Positions 3,697-25,145 of a stretch of 25,145 nt of DNA are shown piece after piece. The notes under the pieces are model-generated. The model saw nothing but the letters and a program-made list of their open reading frames with translations. It had not been told where the DNA came from and ran no database searches. The stretch lies in the IMG/VR virus record IMGVR_UViG_3300027836_000006; one strand, given 5' to 3'. The position numbers and the translations under genes are program-made. How positions within the stretch are numbered: position 1 is the stretch's first letter; each line of letters opens with the position of its first letter. Origin of the DNA: a virus (lineage: Duplodnaviria; Heunggongvirae; Uroviricota; Caudoviricetes).

Positions 3697-4206
3697 ATGC
3701 GCCTAGACAAGTACAGTAATCCTATATTTTCAGAACAAGATTTATTTGATGCCTTATATCAAAAGCATCAATTCGACGTCAATGACACCATGCTTGTTGA
3801 GCGTACAGAATCTATTAAACAATTAGAAACCCAGTTAGGGTTCAATTTTCTCGAACCCTACGAAACTCATTATGAAATAGCTGACTATGATTCGGCTTGC
3901 CAATCAAATTGGCTTATGCCCGAAGAATACAAAATGTTAGATATTGAAGCATGGATTTGGGAGAAAACTCCGCCGTGGGATCCGCAACATACTAGAGTCC
4001 AAGAAGAGTTAGAAGCATACAAAGCAAGAAACATGCTAGACTTACTACGATGGCTTAAATATTTTGTAGATACTTGCTCAAAAGAAAATATTGTTTGGGG
4101 GCTAGGACGAGGATCTAGTGTGGCAAGTTATATACTATTTTTAATTGGTGTTCATAATATAGACAGCATCAAATATAATTTAGACTGGCAGGAATTCCTG
4201 AGATAA
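3697..4206 (+). CDS. Stand-alone fragment of DNA polymerase III alpha (family C, GRGS-containing segment), 169 aa
   Basis: RVQEELEAY...WGLGRGSSVASYILFLIGVHNIDSIKYNLDWQEFLR aligns by eye with DnaE RLxxEL...VGPGRGSxAGSLVAYxLGITxIDPxKYxLLFERFL. It stops before the catalytic PDIDxD motif. Confidence 0.8.
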   Translation: MRLDKYSNPIFSEQDLFDALYQKHQFDVNDTMLVERTESIKQLETQLGFNFLEPYETHYEIADYDSACQSNWLMPEEYKMLDIEAWIWEKTPPWDPQHTRVQEELEAYKARNMLDLLRWLKYFVDTCSKENIVWGLGRGSSVASYILFLIGVHNIDSIKYNLDWQEFLR

Positions 4207-12117: not shown

Positions 12118-12146
12118 TTGACAGGTTCCGCCTAGTATAGTATAAT
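12118..12146 (+). promoter_or_regulatory. Perfect sigma70 promoter TTGACA-N17-TATAAT upstream of dnaJ
   Basis: TTGACA 12118-12123, TATAAT 12141-12146. Confidence 0.85.
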
Positions 12147-13033: not shown

Positions 13034-13484
13034 ACAAGAAGCAGAACAATGGGACTTTAAGAACCATGTCAATGCGGCTGTTATCGAACGAGAAATGCTA
13101 GACCTTATGCGGACTAATAACGCTATTGGCCTAGCTGGGAACCAAGTTGGACTATTACGTAGGGTGTTTGTTATGAAGTTAACAGACGGCCGTGAAATTG
13201 GTTGCTTCAATCCATGGATCATGTTTGGTGATAATGATAAAATCGAAGGCGATGAAGGTTGTTTGAGCTTTACAAATCTTTGGCTTAAGGTTAAACGACA
13301 CAATAAAATTACTGCCGCATATCTTGACAATACAGGAAAACAATGTATAATAGAACTTGAAGGCCTAGATTCTCGATGCTTCCAACACGAGTTGGATCAT
13401 TTAGATGGCATAACATTTACCGAATATGTAAGTGATTTAAAATTACAAATGGCACGGAAAAAACAAAGGAAACTAAATGGTTGA
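12996..13484 (+). CDS. def: Peptide deformylase
   Basis: [22 protein letters not shown] motifs; basic C-terminal helix. Confidence 0.93.
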
Positions 13485-16453: not shown

Positions 16454-16825
16454 ATGCGTATTAGAGAGCTTTTAGAAGGCAAAAAATTTAATGACTTGGA
16501 CTTTGTTAAGAAGGACGGCGATAAAACTGATATCGACTATGATTTAACAGAAGACCTAGTATTTTATATGAATAACGATGACGATGTGTATCGCCGTGTT
16601 GTTTACCCAAGTGTAGTTACTTGTACAAATCGATTAGAAAGTAATCGTAAAACTAACCCAAGTATTTTTACCAATGCGGTAAAAGAAAGTTACAAGCAGT
16701 ATCTTAAAAAATTTCCAATGCGTCAATTGCCGTTAGATATTGACGAAGAAGTTTGTAAAGAAGCTTGTGAAAAAATGCATGAAGAAATATGCCAGAATCA
16801 CAGCGATAGCAACCTCAAGGACTAA
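16454..16825 (+). CDS. Hypothetical protein, 123 aa, capsid-targeting-like N-terminus (MRIRELLE)
   Basis: First gene of the late block; N-terminal motif shared with its neighbours. Confidence 0.8.
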   Translation: MRIRELLEGKKFNDLDFVKKDGDKTDIDYDLTEDLVFYMNNDDDVYRRVVYPSVVTCTNRLESNRKTNPSIFTNAVKESYKQYLKKFPMRQLPLDIDEEVCKEACEKMHEEICQNHSDSNLKD

Positions 16826-16828
16826 ACA

Positions 16829-18055
16829 GTGTTACTTAGAGAATTGTTCTATCGAGAAAATGCTCAACCAGCTGACGACAGCATGGAAAAATACGGCCGA
16901 GCTTTTAATCATCCGGAGCATTTGGTATTCTTTAAAGGATCTCAAGGCACGTTAGAAGCCTTAAATCATTTTAAACAAATTGCCGGTGAGACAGAAGGAC
17001 AAACAACTGTACGTGGTAAATGGGACGGTAATCCTCAAATTTATTGGGGCAGAGAAGTTGCCAATGGGCCATTAATTCTAGCAGGACATAATCAGTGGAG
17101 CCGTGGAGTTAAAGGCGATAGTAAAGAAACAGTATACGACTTTATTGCCAATCAAAGTGGTAAAGCAAAGACTCCTGAAGAAGTTAAACAGCGTCAACAG
17201 TTTGCTAACGAGTTTGCTAACTTGTATCCGCTATTTGATGCCGCTACTCCTAAAGACTTTGTAGGGTTCGTATATGCTGATAATTTGTTTGGAGTCGATT
17301 CGTCAAATCCTAAACGCTTAGAAAAACAAGAAGGCTATCCTAAAGGTGTTTGGACGTTCTGCCCTAATCCTAAATCCGATACTTGTTATCACGTCGATGC
17401 CGCTGGTGAGTTAGGACAGCGTATTAGTAAAGCACAAGTTATGGTTGTTGGCCATGCTAAGTTTGATACATTTGGCGCTGGTGATAGAGAACAACAGCCG
17501 ATGGACGACTTTGACATGTTTAATGGCACTAGCGGATTAATTGTACAAGGGCCTGTGTATACTAAAGGCGGAAGTAATCAAGACACGTCACAAGTTGATG
17601 AATTAATCGATTATGTAATTGATGAAGTAGACGGCGTCGGTGCCAACATCGATGCGTTTATCGGTAGCTTGCCTGATCCGGATAAAAATGGAATATTTTA
17701 TCCATTTTTTAATGCCATGAGTAATCTACATGCTAATAACGAACAAAGCTTCGATAGCATTACCGGACAAACTTTTATCGACTGGATGACAAAGAAAGGC
17801 GTAAGTAAGAATAAACAAGCACACGTGGTTGAGATGATCAAGCAACACCCTGGCGCACTTGACTCCATGTTAAAACTGATTAAAGACATTCGCAATATGA
17901 AAGATGAAGTGTATGCTTCATACCAAGGGCAAGGTAAACCAGAAATATGGGATACTAACGGAGAAGGGTACGTTCGCTACGCCCAGCCTGGGAATAAATA
18001 TGGTAACATAAAGATTGTTCCAACATCTTGGGCACCAGGGAAAAAATCAGCATGA
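16829..18055 (+). CDS. RNA-ligase-like covalent nucleotidyltransferase (probably DUF6267-like), 408 aa
   Basis: GTG start MLLRELF; HPEH, motif I KWDG (17018), motif III-like YADNLF, motif IV EGYV (17963), motif V KIV (18011). Family name recalled, not searched. Confidence 0.6.
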   Translation: MLLRELFYRENAQPADDSMEKYGRAFNHPEHLVFFKGSQGTLEALNHFKQIAGETEGQTTVRGKWDGNPQIYWGREVANGPLILAGHNQWSRGVKGDSKETVYDFIANQSGKAKTPEEVKQRQQFANEFANLYPLFDAATPKDFVGFVYADNLFGVDSSNPKRLEKQEGYPKGVWTFCPNPKSDTCYHVDAAGELGQRISKAQVMVVGHAKFDTFGAGDREQQPMDDFDMFNGTSGLIVQGPVYTKGGSNQDTSQVDELIDYVIDEVDGVGANIDAFIGSLPDPDKNGIFYPFFNAMSNLHANNEQSFDSITGQTFIDWMTKKGVSKNKQAHVVEMIKQHPGALDSMLKLIKDIRNMKDEVYASYQGQGKPEIWDTNGEGYVRYAQPGNKYGNIKIVPTSWAPGKKSA

Positions 18056-19146
18056 AATTAAGACAGTTATTTGAAAATATCTATCAAGAAGCTAGTGGCG
18101 TTACTAACGTAGCAATTATCTTTGGTAGATTCAATCCCCCGCATCAAGGGCATGCCGCCGCTTGGCGTACTGCTTCCAGTTTTGATGAATGGTTTGTTGG
18201 TACAAATGAAGGCACAGTTGGTCCGAAAGATCCTTTACCATTTAAAGTTAAGGTAGCTGCAATGAAGACTATCTATCCTGAAATTGAAGGTCACTTGGTA
18301 GCAGAACAAAGTTGGTGGACACTTGCTACAAAAGTTTATAAAAAGTACGGGCCTGTTACATTACATGTCGTTACTGATGAAAAAGATGCTAAGATATTTG
18401 TTCCTGGGTTACAGGATCAAAACGGTAAAGAAGGACCACACGGTTATTATAGATTTAAAGATATCAAGTGGGCAAAAGCTGATAGGATTTCAAGTGCCAC
18501 AGACCTACGAGCTGCAGTAGCCAATGATGATCCTAAGGCATTTGAACAGGCAGCAGGAGTACCTGCTAATATTGTTGTTGCTGGCCGGCCATTCTTTGAA
18601 TTAGTCAAGCATTATCTAACACCTTACTTACATCAGGCGGCAGAAAAAGAACAACAAAAAGCTGAAAGGGCTCGCCTTAAAGCAGAGAAAGAAGCTGCCA
18701 AAGCTGACAGGTTAGCAAGCAAACAACCAACAAGTCAAGAAGAGCCAGAAACACTCGCAGAGAAGATTCAAAAACTTGAATTGGAATTATTAGAAACATC
18801 TGAAAAACGTATTAGCAAACGTCAGCAACAAGCTACTGTAGGACTTAATACATTTGGTGATAGCGAGCATATGAACGCCGACTATACACAGTATAGATTA
18901 GGATTGGCTGTTGCTTGTGCTGACGGTGTTAATCCAATACCAGATATTGGTAAAACATGGGTAGGCAAAAGAAAATCTACGCATCCTTATACACAAGAAG
19001 AACAAGATATGCTGAAACAAGCATACAAAGCAGTTGGCGCAACTCATAAAGATTTAAACAAGGGCGATATGAAAAGTAGAGAATTAGATACTACATACAA
19101 AGTTAGCCCGGTAGCAAAACCTAAAAAGAACAAGTACGGAGTATAA
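18052..19146 (+). CDS. HxGH nucleotidyltransferase (cytidyltransferase/NMNAT-like) with an extra C-terminal domain, 364 aa
   Basis: ATG 18052 (ATGA-coupled, MKLRQLFE); FGRFNPPHQGH; ISSATDLR; then an Ala/Lys/Glu linker and a second domain. Confidence 0.8.
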   Translation: MKLRQLFENIYQEASGVTNVAIIFGRFNPPHQGHAAAWRTASSFDEWFVGTNEGTVGPKDPLPFKVKVAAMKTIYPEIEGHLVAEQSWWTLATKVYKKYGPVTLHVVTDEKDAKIFVPGLQDQNGKEGPHGYYRFKDIKWAKADRISSATDLRAAVANDDPKAFEQAAGVPANIVVAGRPFFELVKHYLTPYLHQAAEKEQQKAERARLKAEKEAAKADRLASKQPTSQEEPETLAEKIQKLELELLETSEKRISKRQQQATVGLNTFGDSEHMNADYTQYRLGLAVACADGVNPIPDIGKTWVGKRKSTHPYTQEEQDMLKQAYKAVGATHKDLNKGDMKSRELDTTYKVSPVAKPKKNKYGV

Positions 19147-19147
19147 C

Positions 19148-19585
19148 GTGGACGAAAAATACCATTTAGCATTAAAAACAGCATTTGCTAGCGAATACGC
19201 TTTTGCTATTAAAGCACAAAATTTTCATTGGAACGTAGAAGGTCCGTTGTTTGTACAACTACACGAATTGTTTGAAACTATCTATACAGAAGTATATGGT
19301 AGTATTGATACATTCGCAGAACAGTTGAGAGCATTACAAGTGTATACTCCAGCAAGTCTAGCAAAATTTAGTATGCTCACAAAAGTCGAAGACGAAAATG
19401 CTGTTCCAGAGTTTCACGGAATGTTAAGCGAACTATTAGAAGATAGCGAAAAAATGGCTAACATTTTCAAAATGGTTTTTAGTATGTCAGAGGCGGCAGG
19501 AGATCACGGCCTAAGTGACTTCTTAGCTAGTCGACAAGATGCTCACAAAAAGCATAGTTGGATGTTGAGATCTTGTTTAAAATGA
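19148..19585 (+). CDS. dps: Dps/ferritin-like protein
   Basis: KAQNFHWNVEGPLFVQLHELFETIY, DTFAEQLR, HKKHSWML. Confidence 0.9.
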   Translation: MDEKYHLALKTAFASEYAFAIKAQNFHWNVEGPLFVQLHELFETIYTEVYGSIDTFAEQLRALQVYTPASLAKFSMLTKVEDENAVPEFHGMLSELLEDSEKMANIFKMVFSMSEAAGDHGLSDFLASRQDAHKKHSWMLRSCLK

Positions 19586-19875
19586 AACAGTATAAGATAA
19601 CTACGGCAGACTTGAACCAATCTAGCGATGAAGATTGTTATTTGGCTCCAGAGGATCCTATACACGAGTTGAAAGCATTAGCTGGTATGGGCGGGCTTGG
19701 TGGCGAAGCAAGATTACACGAGTATCGTGCTAGTCAAGGAAGTAATATTAGTGTAACAGGCATGGAGAAGGGCGACTTGATGAAGCAACATAATATCAAG
19801 CCTGGCACACCTGAATGGTTTAAATTGTGGTTTAGTTTGCCGTTTATGACTGGCGAAAAACCAGTAGGAAAATAA
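19582..19875 (+). CDS. Conserved phage hypothetical protein, 97 aa (IKPGTPEWFKLWFS)
   Basis: ATG 19582 is ATGA-coupled to dps; preferred to the track start at 19558. Confidence 0.8.
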   Translation: MKQYKITTADLNQSSDEDCYLAPEDPIHELKALAGMGGLGGEARLHEYRASQGSNISVTGMEKGDLMKQHNIKPGTPEWFKLWFSLPFMTGEKPVGK

Positions 19876-19876
19876 A

Positions 19877-20146
19877 ATGAAAGTCCATGAGATTTTATCA
19901 GAAACTGCTACAGCTGGCGCTACTAGTTCAGGAAATATAGCAACAGTAGTAAGCCCACACCTTGCCATTGGCAAGAAACGTGGTAGTAAGAGTTACATCG
20001 GTGATCCGTGGGGCGGAAAATCAGGCACTAAAGCCCCTAAACCACCGAAAGTTAAACAGAAAAAGAACAAAAACGGCACTGCTGTAAATGCTTTGGACAT
20101 GAAAGGTACAAGTATTTTCGGCGGTACTACTATCAAAAGACGCTAA
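19877..20146 (+). CDS. Basic small protein, 89 aa, capsid-targeting-like N-terminus (MKVHEILSE)
   Basis: ETATAGATSSGNIA after the motif; Lys-rich remainder. Confidence 0.8.
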   Translation: MKVHEILSETATAGATSSGNIATVVSPHLAIGKKRGSKSYIGDPWGGKSGTKAPKPPKVKQKKNKNGTAVNALDMKGTSIFGGTTIKRR

Positions 20147-21932: not shown

Positions 21933-22676
21933 ATGGACATGAAACGCATCTTAGAAAAGTTAGATCAAGCTGGTTCTAAGCCAGCTGTTGATTCAAACGA
22001 CATGAAACGATTTGTGTCTATTGTCAATGAAGGTGCGAATCCTCACAAGGTTGCATTGCCAGTACAAATGGCAATGCAACATTATCAAGAAGTAACCGCA
22101 GAAAAAACTCCTGTTAAAGAGTCATTACTTAAAAAGTATTTTGCCGAAGCACAAGATGTGGCGGTACAAGCGGCTGAACAACAAGCAGTTGAAAAGCAAC
22201 AACAATTAAGTATGTACGCACAACGTATTGCTAAAAAGGTTTTAGAAGGTCACAAAGACGATGCTTGGACTAGAGACTATAAGTCTAGCACTAGCGGCTT
22301 TGATCGTAAAGATTCACTAGCATACCAAATGGACGGTGGTGCTAATGATGAAGGCTGGGATGAAGAAGAACCAAGACAGCATAGACATTATAAAAAATAC
22401 TCGCCTAATAACAAATCAAAAGAAAATCCTAACGAAGGCATTCTAGGTGATATTAAAGATGCTGTTGTTGGCAAGAGCGCAGAAGACTGGGCTAAAACAA
22501 GTACACAAATGGCCGCATTAATTAAAATGCGAGCACAATATCCAAACAATAAAGAATTAGAACAACGTATTAGCGATTTGGCATTTAGACTAAATCAAGG
22601 GTCTGGAGAAGTAATGGACTACGATCCTAAAACAGGACGACAATTTCCAAAATCGCCACTGCCACCAAAACAATAA
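21933..22676 (+). CDS. Hypothetical internal-protein-like, 247 aa (MDMKRILEKLD)
   Basis: Long ORF with composition like its neighbours. Confidence 0.8.
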   Translation: MDMKRILEKLDQAGSKPAVDSNDMKRFVSIVNEGANPHKVALPVQMAMQHYQEVTAEKTPVKESLLKKYFAEAQDVAVQAAEQQAVEKQQQLSMYAQRIAKKVLEGHKDDAWTRDYKSSTSGFDRKDSLAYQMDGGANDEGWDEEEPRQHRHYKKYSPNNKSKENPNEGILGDIKDAVVGKSAEDWAKTSTQMAALIKMRAQYPNNKELEQRISDLAFRLNQGSGEVMDYDPKTGRQFPKSPLPPKQ

Positions 22677-22689
22677 TTAGGAAAGAGAC

Positions 22690-25145
22690 ATGGATTTAAG
22701 ATCATTAATTAACAAACTAGACGCTATTGAACAAGCTAAACTATTACTTGAATCAGAAGAGTTAATGGAACGAGTGGGTCTCAGATTACAAGACATTGAG
22801 CAAGCCGCTGGTCGCGAGCTCGATGACACAAAACGTGCAGCTATAATTGGCGACTTTGCTAGAAAGTTTGGCTATGCTGGGTTGTTTGATCCAAACACAG
22901 GTAAGTTTGTTAACAAAGATGGTAGGTTTGCTAGTTTCGGTGCTTATCAAAGCGAAGTTGAACAGCTAGAAGACGAAGGTTTAATTCCTAACAGCGCAAA
23001 GACATCCGCACTATTAGGCTTTCTAGGCAAAGATGAAAAAGCATCAAAGCCAACGGCATTTGCTAGAGCAGATTTGTTTGGTGCTATTGATAAGGCGGAC
23101 GGATTACTTGATAAAGCACTTGCTGAATCTGTTACAATGTCAAGCAATGTGTTAGAAGGTAAGAGTATTGCTAGCGCATTATTGGCCGAATTTGGGCTTA
23201 ATACAACTATTTTAGAAGCTATTACTCCAGAAGAACATCAGTTTCTTAAAAAGACAGTTAAGGATGCTGAATCAATTAAACACAAAGCAGATGCTATTGC
23301 TTTAATAACTAGATACAATAAAGAATATATTCCAGCACGTGATAGATTAATCGCAGAAATTAAAAAAATTATTGCTGCCATGGCTCCAGCGGCAGCTCCT
23401 GCTGCACGTGCTCCTGGGCAATCAGCTAGTGAGAGCGTATCCAGTAATTATAAAAAACCTATATTTGAATTAAAAGCAACCAAGCCAGGAATTACAATAC
23501 ATCAACCAAATTTCCTTGGATATCTCAGTCCCGAGAAAGCTAAACACAATGCCGACATGTTGAGGACAGGTAAAGCAGAATTAGAACCTTCAGATCATGT
23601 TGGTCAAAACGTAGCCGATTTGGCTAACGGATTAACATTTGGATTTGCTGACAAAGCGGCCGCATATTTAGACAGTGTAGCTACTGGTACTAAGTACGAT
23701 GACCAATTGGCAAAATATAAAGGTGGAACCGACGCATACAATAAAGACAAAAATGCTCTTAATGTACGTAACGCGGCCGGTGCCCTTGGCTATGAGATTG
23801 ACAAAGATAACATGCTAGGAAATATTACACCAGGTGACTTGCTTAGTTTGTTTGGCGGCGCTGGATTAATTAGAGCAGGAGCCAAGGGCGCAGCCAAGGT
23901 AGGCGGTGGCAAAGTTGCTCAAACTGCCGCAGGTCTTGGTACAGGTGTTGTCGCTCCAGTTGCGGCAGCTTTGACCATAGGTAATCCTGAAGAAGCCAAA
24001 AAGGCTGCTAAAGGCATGGATTCGAATACTATCAAAGCAATGCAAGCAGATCTTGTTAAGGCCAAAGCTAACTTAGGAAAATTTGGCCCGGATAAAAACG
24101 GTGTCGATGGCAAACTTGGTAAACTTACCCTAGCGGCTATGGCAGATCCAAAGTATTCTGATATTGTTCAAAAATATATTAAACCAAGTAGTGCTCCGGC
24201 AGCGGCAGCACCTGCGGCGGCAGTTCCGGCGGAAGCACCTGCGGCGGCAGCGGCAGCTCCAGCATCGGCAGAAGCACCGGCAGCGGCGGCAGCACCAGCG
24301 GCAGCTCCAGCATCGGCAGAAGCACCGGCAGCGGTGGCGGCACCAGCGGCGGCACCTATTAGACGCTCTGATGGATCTAACGGCGCTTATCCAGCATCAG
24401 CAACTGTTGCTTCAGCACCCGAATTAGATTCATTTGTACAAGATCCAAGTATAACCCCTCAAGTAGTTAAAGCGGCATTAGCAAAAGTTGGTGTAACTGG
24501 CAATAGCATTACTCCTGAACAATTATTAGCCTTAGCAACATCGTTAGGAATCAGCGAAGTAGCTGAGTCTACTGAATTAGATCGTATACGAAAATTATCT
24601 GGTTTGTCTGAGAGAACAGATCTTAATGAAGGACCGCGTGATAAATTTGCCAGTTGGGTGCTCGATACTATGATTGGCGCTGGAGGAAGAAAGGCAGAAC
24701 AAGCTACAATTGCAAATTTAGATGCTATTGGGCCAAGAGCGGCTGAAATTGCGGCAGCGAAAAAAGTTGCAAGAGAAATTCAAGCTCGAGGGGCCCCAGG
24801 CACGGCAGCAGTTCCGTCAGCACCGGCAGCGGCAGCAGTTCCGTCAGCACCGGCAGGGGCAGTTGCCGCTTTAGATCCAGTAGCAGATGCTGCCAAACAA
24901 ATGGCAGGTAAAAGTGCGGCTGAACTCCGAGCATTGGCAAACAATCCAAGTCTTACTGCGTTGCAAAGAAAAGCCGCTAATGCTGAATTACAAAGAATTG
25001 GTGGGGCTGTAGATAATGCAGCAGGTGCCGCAGATAATGCAGCAGGTGCTGTAGATAATGCAGCAGGTGCTGTAGATAATGCAGCAGGAGCAGGTTCTAG
25101 AGTAGCAGGTGCCGCAGATAATGCAGCAGGTGCTGTAGATAATGT
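22690..25145 (+). CDS. Large Ala-rich protein (>818 aa, 3'-truncated) with a peptidoglycan-binding domain; probable ejection/virion protein (absent from ORF track)
   Basis: I translated ATG 22690 to the window end with no stop. SD-like AGGAAAGAG; GLTFGFAD; Gly/Ala hydrophobic tract; PG_binding_1-like IKAMQADL...GVDGKLGKLT. Confidence 0.85.
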   Translation, partial: MDLRSLINKLDAIEQAKLLLESEELMERVGLRLQDIEQAAGRELDDTKRAAIIGDFARKFGYAGLFDPNTGKFVNKDGRFASFGAYQSEVEQLEDEGLIPNSAKTSALLGFLGKDEKASKPTAFARADLFGAIDKADGLLDKALAESVTMSSNVLEGKSIASALLAEFGLNTTILEAITPEEHQFLKKTVKDAESIKHKADAIALITRYNKEYIPARDRLIAEIKKIIAAMAPAAAPAARAPGQSASESVSSNYKKPIFELKATKPGITIHQPNFLGYLSPEKAKHNADMLRTGKAELEPSDHVGQNVADLANGLTFGFADKAAAYLDSVATGTKYDDQLAKYKGGTDAYNKDKNALNVRNAAGALGYEIDKDNMLGNITPGDLLSLFGGAGLIRAGAKGAAKVGGGKVAQTAAGLGTGVVAPVAAALTIGNPEEAKKAAKGMDSNTIKAMQADLVKAKANLGKFGPDKNGVDGKLGKLTLAAMADPKYSDIVQKYIKPSSAPAAAAPAAAVPAEAPAAAAAAPASAEAPAAAAAPAAAPASAEAPAAVAAPAAAPIRRSDGSNGAYPASATVASAPELDSFVQDPSITPQVVKAALAKVGVTGNSITPEQLLALATSLGISEVAESTELDRIRKLSGLSERTDLNEGPRDKFASWVLDTMIGAGGRKAEQATIANLDAIGPRAAEIAAAKKVAREIQARGAPGTAAVPSAPAAAAVPSAPAGAVAALDPVADAAKQMAGKSAAELRALANNPSLTALQRKAANAELQRIGGAVDNAAGAADNAAGAVDNAAGAVDNAAGAGSRVAGAADNAAGAVDN
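24193..24357 (+). repeat. Ala/Pro linker with a 48-bp-period duplication
   Basis: cagcggcagctccagcatcggcagaagcaccggcagcgg at 24248-24286 and 24296-24334. Confidence 0.9.
24802..24855 (+). repeat. 27-bp tandem repeat x2 (xAAVPSAPA)
   Basis: Units at 24802-24828 and 24829-24855. Confidence 0.9.
25003..25145 (+). repeat. 21-bp coding tandem repeat (GA[VA]DNAA), at least 7 units, running off the window
   Basis: Units start at 25003, 25024, 25045, 25066, 25087 (divergent GAGSRVA), 25108 and 25129. Confidence 0.95.

Follow-up and report, generated by a model that had tools for sequence, protein, structure and literature searches.

Two genes encoded back to back in a 25,145-nucleotide stretch of DNA from an uncultivated T4-like jumbo phage (IMG/VR virus record IMGVR_UViG_3300027836_000006; this whole stretch is hereinafter the window) appear to specify two active adenylyl-transfer enzymes that are probably loaded into the phage head and injected together with the DNA. 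We assign this interpretation a probability of about 0.55, that is, a little better than even. The first gene, open reading frame (ORF) A, encodes a member of the DUF6267 family whose fold and motif order, as seen in the predicted structure, support its assignment as a covalent (lysyl-AMP) nucleotidyltransferase, closest to RNA ligases; the second, ORF B, encodes an HxGH nucleotidyltransferase. The relevant features of ORF A are the following:

16829..18055, plus strand: ORF A, 408 amino acids (aa), DUF6267 protein, predicted divergent RNA-ligase-type covalent nucleotidyltransferase (Pfam, AlphaFold model, VIA-align)
17018-17029, plus strand: motif I, K64-W-D-G, with the presumed AMP-accepting lysine; K64, D66 and G67 invariant, W65 conserved in at least 90% of 51 sequences
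17576..17926, plus strand: stretch of about 115 aa, modelled as helices 253-366, which separates the front half of the nucleotidyltransferase fold from the back half and holds the invariant K358
17963..18019, plus strand: motif IV, E379-G-Y-V (17963-17974), and motif V, I394-K395-I-V397 (18008-18019), as delineated by alignment conservation

The AlphaFold (AF2) model of ORF A is of high quality (predicted local distance difference test score, pLDDT, of 90.4; predicted template modelling score, pTM, of 0.88), with residues 1-21 disordered or helical and located outside the conserved domain. A VIA-align scan of 48,161 PDB chains retrieves RNA or DNA ligases as 20 of the top 21 matches (Z 4.9-6.6), the only non-ligase among these being an unrelated designed helical bundle; a capping enzyme appears at rank 25. 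In a second-look VIA-align comparison, all 50 listed chains are ATP-dependent RNA or DNA ligases (Z 4.8-7.2, 147-214 residues aligned), and so are 43 of the 43 chains with Z of at least 5. The best match is the Naegleria RNA ligase NgrRnl (6vt3; Z 7.2, 183 residues aligned), and the scores are 6.0-6.7 for Trl1, REL1 and T4 Rnl2, and 5.0-5.5 for T4 Rnl1 (165-167 residues aligned). A Foldseek search started with ORF A yields no match at E of 0.001 or below, with ligases enriched among the listed matches. Because the VIA-align matches are uniformly ligases and the motifs are conserved, the ligase fold is accepted here. There is no OB domain in the ORF A model, which places the protein closer to RNA ligases than to DNA ligases or capping enzymes; for the same reason, a DNA-ligase or capping-enzyme identity was considered and judged less likely. 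The ligase-like assignment in the original prediction, which had been made from the letters of the sequence and had hinged on the presence of a ligase fold, is thus supported by the search with the predicted structure.

The pattern of conservation in the family is compatible with this assignment. In an alignment of 51 sequences that share 22-79% identity, H28, K64, D66, G67, G74, K358, E379 and G380 are invariant, and W65, R75, D151, Y187, V382, K395, V397 and R399 are conserved in at least 90% of the sequences. Judging from this alignment, the conserved residues of DUF6267 fall where ligases have motifs I, IV and V, namely, on KxDG, EG-x-V and a downstream lysine. The KWDG, EGYV and KIV stretches originally read as these three motifs are all present, in the proper order, and the order and spacing of motifs IV and V are similar to those in T4 Rnl2 (EGYVLK...AIKCK). 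K395 is located on a modelled strand (393-396), and the C-terminus lies 13 residues past motif V. Candidates for motifs III and IIIa (in ligases, an acidic and an aromatic residue that touch the ribose and the adenine), by strand position only, are D151 (strand 146-154) and Y187 (strand 186-190), each conserved in at least 90% of the sequences.

ORF A starts with a GTG codon preceded by an AAGGA ribosome-binding site, and its product is acidic, with an isoelectric point (pI) of 5.5. It matches the Pfam profile PF19782 (DUF6267) with an E-value of 4.2e-12 (46.6 bits, with the cut-off at 27), as do 50 of the 51 aligned homologues. This family is large: a word search finds 1,097 clusters at 90% identity, an exhaustive HMMER search finds 273 clusters at 50% identity, with many of the domains embedded in proteins of 600-1,259 aa, and members are encoded in 462 cultured phage genomes. 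A literature search found no paper that mentions DUF6267. When the ORF A of the window served as the query, cultured phages yielded no match at either the DNA or the protein level; the cultured-phage members surfaced only with more typical DUF6267 queries.

The second gene of the pair has the following features:

18052..19146, plus strand: ORF B, 364 aa, HxGH nucleotidyltransferase (NMNAT/PPAT-like) followed by a long charged helix and a conserved C-terminal module (Pfam, PHROGs, Foldseek, tblastn)
18121..18153, plus strand: FGRFNPPHQGH (F24-H34), HxGH nucleotide-binding motif; F, G, R, N, P, P, H, G and H invariant in the alignment of ORF B homologues (A2)
18487..18510, plus strand: ISSATDLR (I146-R153), ISxxxxR signature of HxGH adenylyltransferases; R145, A149 and R153 invariant (alignment A2, numbered one higher there)
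18814..19143, plus strand: C-terminal module of about 110 aa ending in ...KKNKYGV; conserved blocks in A2, low model confidence

The ATG of ORF B (18052-18054) overlaps the TGA of ORF A (18053-18055), so that the ATGA coupling pointed out in the original prediction can be read directly from the sequence. The start assigned by the ORF tool, TTG at 18028, was ruled out given that all homologues begin with M-K/R-L-R-E/Q-L-F-E at the ATG. ORF B matches PF01467 marginally (21.6 bits, with the cut-off at 21) as well as phrog_3041 and phrog_395, labelled cytidyltransferase in PHROGs. Residues 20-200 are modelled with pLDDT above 90, and a Foldseek search identifies NadM, archaeal NMNAT, NadD and PPAT (E 6e-5, probability 1.0), with the NMNAT, NadD and PPAT matches tied; the earlier identification as an HxGH enzyme accordingly holds. 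A search for Pfam, PHROG or usable Atlas matches to the C-terminal module retrieved none. With tblastn, ORF B matches P-SSM4 and Melnitz, and by sequence comparison it is an orthologue of the cyanophage “cytitidyltransferase” T4-GC190.

The two genes are tightly linked over a wide range of phages. An HxGH ORF is located directly downstream of the DUF6267 gene in 28 of the 28 evaluable related metagenomic and viral loci, that is, related contigs with enough sequence downstream of DUF6267. P-SSM4 carries the same pair with overlapping codons, and in Melnitz there is one small gene in between. Both families (T4-GC71 for DUF6267 and T4-GC190) are represented in all 16 marine cyanomyoviruses and are adjacent in 13 of these, the exceptions being P-SSM2, S-SM2 and S-SSM7 (Sullivan et al. 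2010, Table S2, PMC3037559). In these three phages and in S-CREM2, the two genes are far apart. The two domains are also found fused, in one order in P0152, P0157 and P0259, and in the opposite order in P0153, P0183 and P0210; furthermore, CTP_transf_like is found in 30% of the members of one ESM Atlas DUF6267 cluster. The recurrence of the pair in T4-like phages, as originally suggested, is thereby confirmed, with linkage across distant phages and even fusion. The fusions are, however, weaker evidence than usual because DUF6267 is fused also to unrelated cargo-like domains, namely Cu/Zn superoxide dismutase, HAD phosphatase and Pol-beta-like nucleotidyltransferase, and they may stem in part from the stringing together of co-packaged proteins and not from a common pathway. 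A complex prediction for ORF A and the catalytic domain of ORF B gave “no answer”, with a score of 0.00, and counts neither way.

Two observations on DUF6267 fusions deserve mention in their own right. In a viral ESM Atlas cluster of 65 proteins, DUF6267 is joined to Cu/Zn superoxide dismutase, an odd partner for a ligase-like enzyme, which hints at concatenated cargo. Many long DUF6267 proteins (P0152, P0157, P0159, P0194, P0223 and P0259) contain an unannotated N-terminal region of about 250 aa with the pattern EGGNVFK...GTTG...SGDLDxAVD, reminiscent of the signature of Pol-beta-type nucleotidyltransferases; the nearest named Atlas clusters carry NTP_transf_2. Therefore, some of these proteins would combine three types of nucleotidyltransferases.

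The proposal that the two enzymes are packaged stems from their N-terminal peptides, hereinafter tags:

16829..16858, plus strand: ORF A tag, M-LLRELFYRE, with Glu at position 10; tag and Glu10 kept in close homologues
18052..18075, plus strand: ORF B tag, MKLRQLFE; near-invariant in 26 aligned homologues and in 27 related loci with a recognised tag
16454..16825, plus strand: upstream gene of 123 aa with the tag MRIRELLE, which opens the tagged block; a gene of 123-124 aa is kept at the same position in relatives

The pattern M-[KRL]-[ILV]-[RH]-[EQ]-[LI]-[LF], drawn up after the data had been seen, occurs at four start codons of the window (16454, 16829, 18052 and 19877), with 0.015 expected (200 shuffles). 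The block 16454-20146 thus comprises four tagged genes that are otherwise unrelated in sequence. Outside the catalytic core, no part of the ORF B homologues is as well conserved as the tag. The prohead protease makes a single cut in the capsid-targeting sequence (CTS) of T4, MKTYQEFIAE, and this sequence suffices to load foreign proteins. The ORF A tag matches this sequence at F7 and E10, and the ORF B tag shares F7 with the CTS and bears Glu8 and Glu13. Many distant DUF6267 proteins possess similar leaders, and others begin at the domain itself; the same kind of peptide is present in roughly one-third to one-half of the single-domain DUF6267 representatives. Both proteins thus bear peptides resembling the T4 CTS, in agreement with the cargo tags of the original prediction, and from this resemblance we infer a role in packaging. 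An alternative role of the tag as a ClpA-related degron, considered given that clpA lies two genes upstream, was rejected because similar tags mark virion proteins of phages that lack that operon.

Published virion proteomes bear on packaging as well. The S-CREM2 protein gp154 (MKNFSSFLTE..., HxGH) and its neighbours gp155, gp156 and gp160 are present in the virion proteome (PMC10665884). The T4-GC190 protein of S-SM1 (MKKFSAFLNE...) was likewise reported in a published virion proteome, with 25 peptide counts, and the four genes that flank DUF6267 in this phage, two on each side (GC1453, GC190, GC1454 and GC1455; L046 947-5833), all encode virion proteins. Thus, among these sequences, the tag tracks virion presence, which supports packaging of ORF B and, only by extension, of the tagged ORF A. 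Proteases of the gp21 type are encoded by PA5oct, 121Q, S-CREM2, Melnitz and T4; a search for such a protease in two related viral contigs, which are only 13-25% complete, returned no match. In S-CRM01 (L038 3495-7641), a DUF6267 gene (g132) is followed by two tagged genes (MNFSEFLE... and MISFDQFLSE...) instead of an HxGH gene; the second of these encodes an 821-aa kinase-like protein, apparently the one reported from S-CRM01 virions.

From the folds, motifs, conservation, linkage and tags, we infer the following sequence of events. By analogy with T4, the amphipathic leader of each protein, about 10 residues long with Glu as the last, would dock the protein into the prohead core and would then be removed by a gp21-type protease. 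In ORF A, K64 of KWDG would attack the alpha-phosphate of ATP (or NAD+, nicotinamide adenine dinucleotide) to form the enzyme-AMP intermediate, with the nucleotide held by E379 and G380 of motif IV and by K395 of motif V together with R399. The AMP would then move to a 5'-phosphate end, which would be sealed or left adenylylated; RNA is the likelier substrate than DNA because there is no OB domain and the best matches are RNA ligases. ORF B would transfer AMP from ATP onto a small phosphorylated compound, yielding an A-pp-X product, the leading guess being the conversion of nicotinamide mononucleotide (NMN) to NAD+. Any cooperation between the two enzymes would come on top of these activities.

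Several observations weigh against this interpretation. The ORF A fold scores (Z up to 7.2) are below the caution line of 8 of VIA-align itself, probably lowered by the large helical insert. Searches of ORF A against PDB sequences, with the single sequence or a profile, gave no match, and a Pfam search of the ORF A family retrieved no ligase family, with 1 of the 51 members weakly matching RNA_lig_T4_1 (E 0.048). In an hhalign comparison, the DUF6267 alignment showed a probability below 1% against T4 Rnl1, T4 Rnl2 and an Rnl2 profile, the latter being shallow (16 sequences, all at least 56% identical). The acidic ORF A (pI given above) is unlike the basic internal proteins of T4. The window encodes no end-healing kinase or phosphatase, as originally noted: no such family is detectable in any ORF of at least 80 aa, with several ORFs showing no family at all. 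Furthermore, the untagged T4-GC71 (DUF6267) proteins are absent from the virion lists of S-SM1, S-PM2 and Syn9, and the S-CREM2 copy of DUF6267 (58914-59762) is absent from the S-CREM2 list. Given that the cyanophage DUF6267 proteins are untagged and undetected, it is the tag that argues for packaging of ORF A, and given that only the HxGH partner is found in S-SM1 and S-CREM2 virions, the two enzymes are not delivered together in cyanophages, which weakens the notion of an obligate injected two-step system. The original claim of a two-step system delivered at infection is therefore supported in part, as regards the delivery of ORF B: tagged orthologues of ORF B are found in virions, whereas untagged orthologues of ORF A went undetected although their neighbours were detected. 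A joint two-step action and an anti-defence role are putative.

The relationship between the two enzymes can be construed in at least two ways. In one coupled pathway, the NMNAT-like enzyme would supply NAD+ or some other A-pp-X compound as the adenylyl donor for the ligase-like enzyme, and the leaving group, e.g., NMN, would be recycled, which would amount to a self-contained NAD+-dependent sealing or adenylylation module. Such a pathway is compatible with the translational coupling of ORF A and ORF B, with gene adjacency in 13 of 16 cyanomyoviruses and in 28 of 28 relatives, with the presence of both families in 16 of 16, and with the fusions in both domain orders; it nevertheless appears improbable because ORF A has neither an NAD+-ligase Ia domain nor a LigA-like match, its best matches being ATP-dependent ligases, because S-SM1 and S-CREM2 virions hold only the HxGH partner, because the genes are far apart in S-CREM2, P-SSM2, S-SM2 and S-SSM7, and because DUF6267 is fused to unrelated domains too. 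Similarly doubtful is a capsid preloaded with two enzymes acting jointly, one that seals or adenylylates nucleic acids and one that synthesises an NAD+-type dinucleotide, with the ligase-like enzyme drawing AMP from the product of its partner; if true, this joint kit would repair or mark RNA or DNA ends and restore NAD+ in the first seconds of infection, ahead of phage gene expression. Alternatively, ORF A and ORF B could be neighbours only by virtue of belonging to a block of head-packaged proteins and have separate targets, e.g., NAD+ or cofactor supply for ORF B and nucleic-acid ends for ORF A. The four tagged genes of unrelated sequence in the block 16454-20146, the mixture of kinases, HxGH enzymes and function-unassigned proteins in the cyanophage clusters, all virion proteins, and the DUF6267 fusions with Cu/Zn superoxide dismutase, HAD and Pol-beta-like domains, which suggest concatenated cargo, all fit this possible, if on the whole unlikely, explanation. 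The A-then-B order and the overlapping codons, however, are kept from the jumbo phage to the cyanomyoviruses at protein identity below 30%, which is beyond what is expected of a loose cluster.

Two further explanations concern ORF A itself. T4 RNA ligase 1 (gp63) is also the catalyst of tail-fibre attachment, and ORF A could by the same token act in the producing cell, as an assembly or cargo-modifying factor, in which case its N-terminal peptide would not be a packaging signal. This would account for the cyanophage DUF6267 genes being located among virion-protein genes and yet undetected in four virion proteomes, but it is highly improbable given that ORF A and a substantial fraction of the single-domain DUF6267 representatives (the one-third to one-half noted above) share the type of peptide found in proven virion proteins, and that the invariant catalytic-type residues favour chemistry over scaffolding. 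Hardly any credence can be given to the possibility that the ligase likeness arose by chance from a widespread alpha/beta arrangement and short motifs, with DUF6267 being some other enzyme or a non-enzyme. The modest Z-scores (at most 7.2) and the lack of profile-level homology would be expected in that case, but the chains at Z of at least 5 in the second look are ligases without exception (43 of 43), and the family-invariant residues fall on KxDG, EG and the downstream lysine in the ligase order. On balance, two adenylyl-transfer enzymes that are probably packaged and injected remain the preferred interpretation.

The genomic setting is that of a T4-like jumbo phage. The window contains genes for a gp44-type clamp loader, a gp31/Cpn10-like protein, dCMP deaminase and PhoH, and a dnaJ-def-clpA operon; in relatives, T4 dsbA and then a family-B DNA polymerase are located downstream. 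Judged by the clamp loader, the nearest cultured phage is the jumbo Pseudomonas phage PA5oct (56% identity). The T4 late promoter TATAAATA has 0 occurrences in the whole window, with 2.9 expected, and no sigma-70-like promoter was found ahead of the tagged block; perfect sigma-70 promoters are located before dnaJ (12118-12146) and at 13324-13351, inside def, just upstream of clpA.

Three other loci of the window are of some interest. A Dps/ferritin-like gene (19148-19585; PF00210 at 1e-19; phrog_3636, “DNA binding protein”) begins 2 bases past the end of ORF B; its position is conserved in relatives and it carries no tag, and its product may bind DNA or handle iron in partnership with the packaged block. 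The ORFs 21933-22676 and 22690-25143 share an N-terminal pattern (MDMKRILEKLD and MDLRSLINKLD, respectively) that is unlike the M-K-L-R-E-L-F type tag and may represent a second class of leaders. Finally, a 169-aa ORF (3697-4206) matches only a short part (positions 23-94) of the DNA Pol III alpha NTPase domain (PF07733).

The cyanophage literature already contains, as unnamed clusters, both the gene pair and the finding of the HxGH protein in virions; what is new here is the assignment of DUF6267 to the ligase fold and the occurrence of a tagged version in a lineage of jumbo phages. DUF6267 is among the commonest uncharacterised families of aquatic T4-like phages, and the assignment to the ligase superfamily makes the family directly testable by lysine adenylylation. 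Should the tagged forms prove to be injected, the concept of T4 internal proteins would be widened from small inhibitors to catalytic cargo, and these forms would become candidates for counter-defence against RNA-cutting or NAD+-depleting immunity.

Comparison with known systems brings out both the similarities and the distinctive features of the pair. ORF A resembles RNA ligases (NgrRnl/Rnl5, T4 Rnl2, REL1, the Trl1 ligase domain and T4 Rnl1) in the predicted adenylyltransferase fold (169-214 residues aligned, and 165-167 for T4 Rnl1), in the succession of KxDG, EGYV and a lysine further downstream, and in the absence of an OB domain. It differs from them in showing no detectable profile similarity, in the helical insertion of about 115 residues ahead of motif IV, in its own invariant H28-x-E-D element and K358, and in the capsid-targeting-like N-terminus; furthermore, unlike known RNA ligases, it is not associated with an end-healing kinase or phosphatase in the window, and its ligase-type activity is a predicted one. 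ORF B shares the Rossmann-like fold and the GRFxPxHxGH and ISxxxxR motifs with NadM/archaeal NMNAT, NadD and PPAT, from which it is distinguished by the N-terminal tag, the long charged helix and the C-terminal module of about 110 residues; it also lacks a Nudix or Nampt partner of the kind present in known phage NAD+ salvage systems.

The tagged block, in turn, is reminiscent of the T4 genes for IPI, IPII and IPIII (and Alt), otherwise unrelated genes with a common short N-terminal peptide, and the tags share with the T4 CTS hydrophobic residues at positions 6-8 and Glu at positions 8-10. Unlike the T4 internal proteins, the putative cargo of the window consists of sizeable enzymes, one of them acidic. 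The closest parallel is the cyanomyovirus pair T4-GC71/T4-GC190 (e.g., gp154/gp155 of P-SSM4 and gp189/gp190 of S-SM1), which is similar to the pair in the window in the families involved, in gene order and, often, in the overlapping codons. The respective proteins are less than 30% identical, and the phage in question belongs with the PA5oct-like jumbo phages and not with Kyanoviridae. The cyanophage DUF6267 protein is untagged and undetected in virions, in contrast to the tagged ORF A, whereas T4-GC190 is similar to ORF B in both the HxGH motif and the CTS-like tag, and this cyanophage member is a virion protein.

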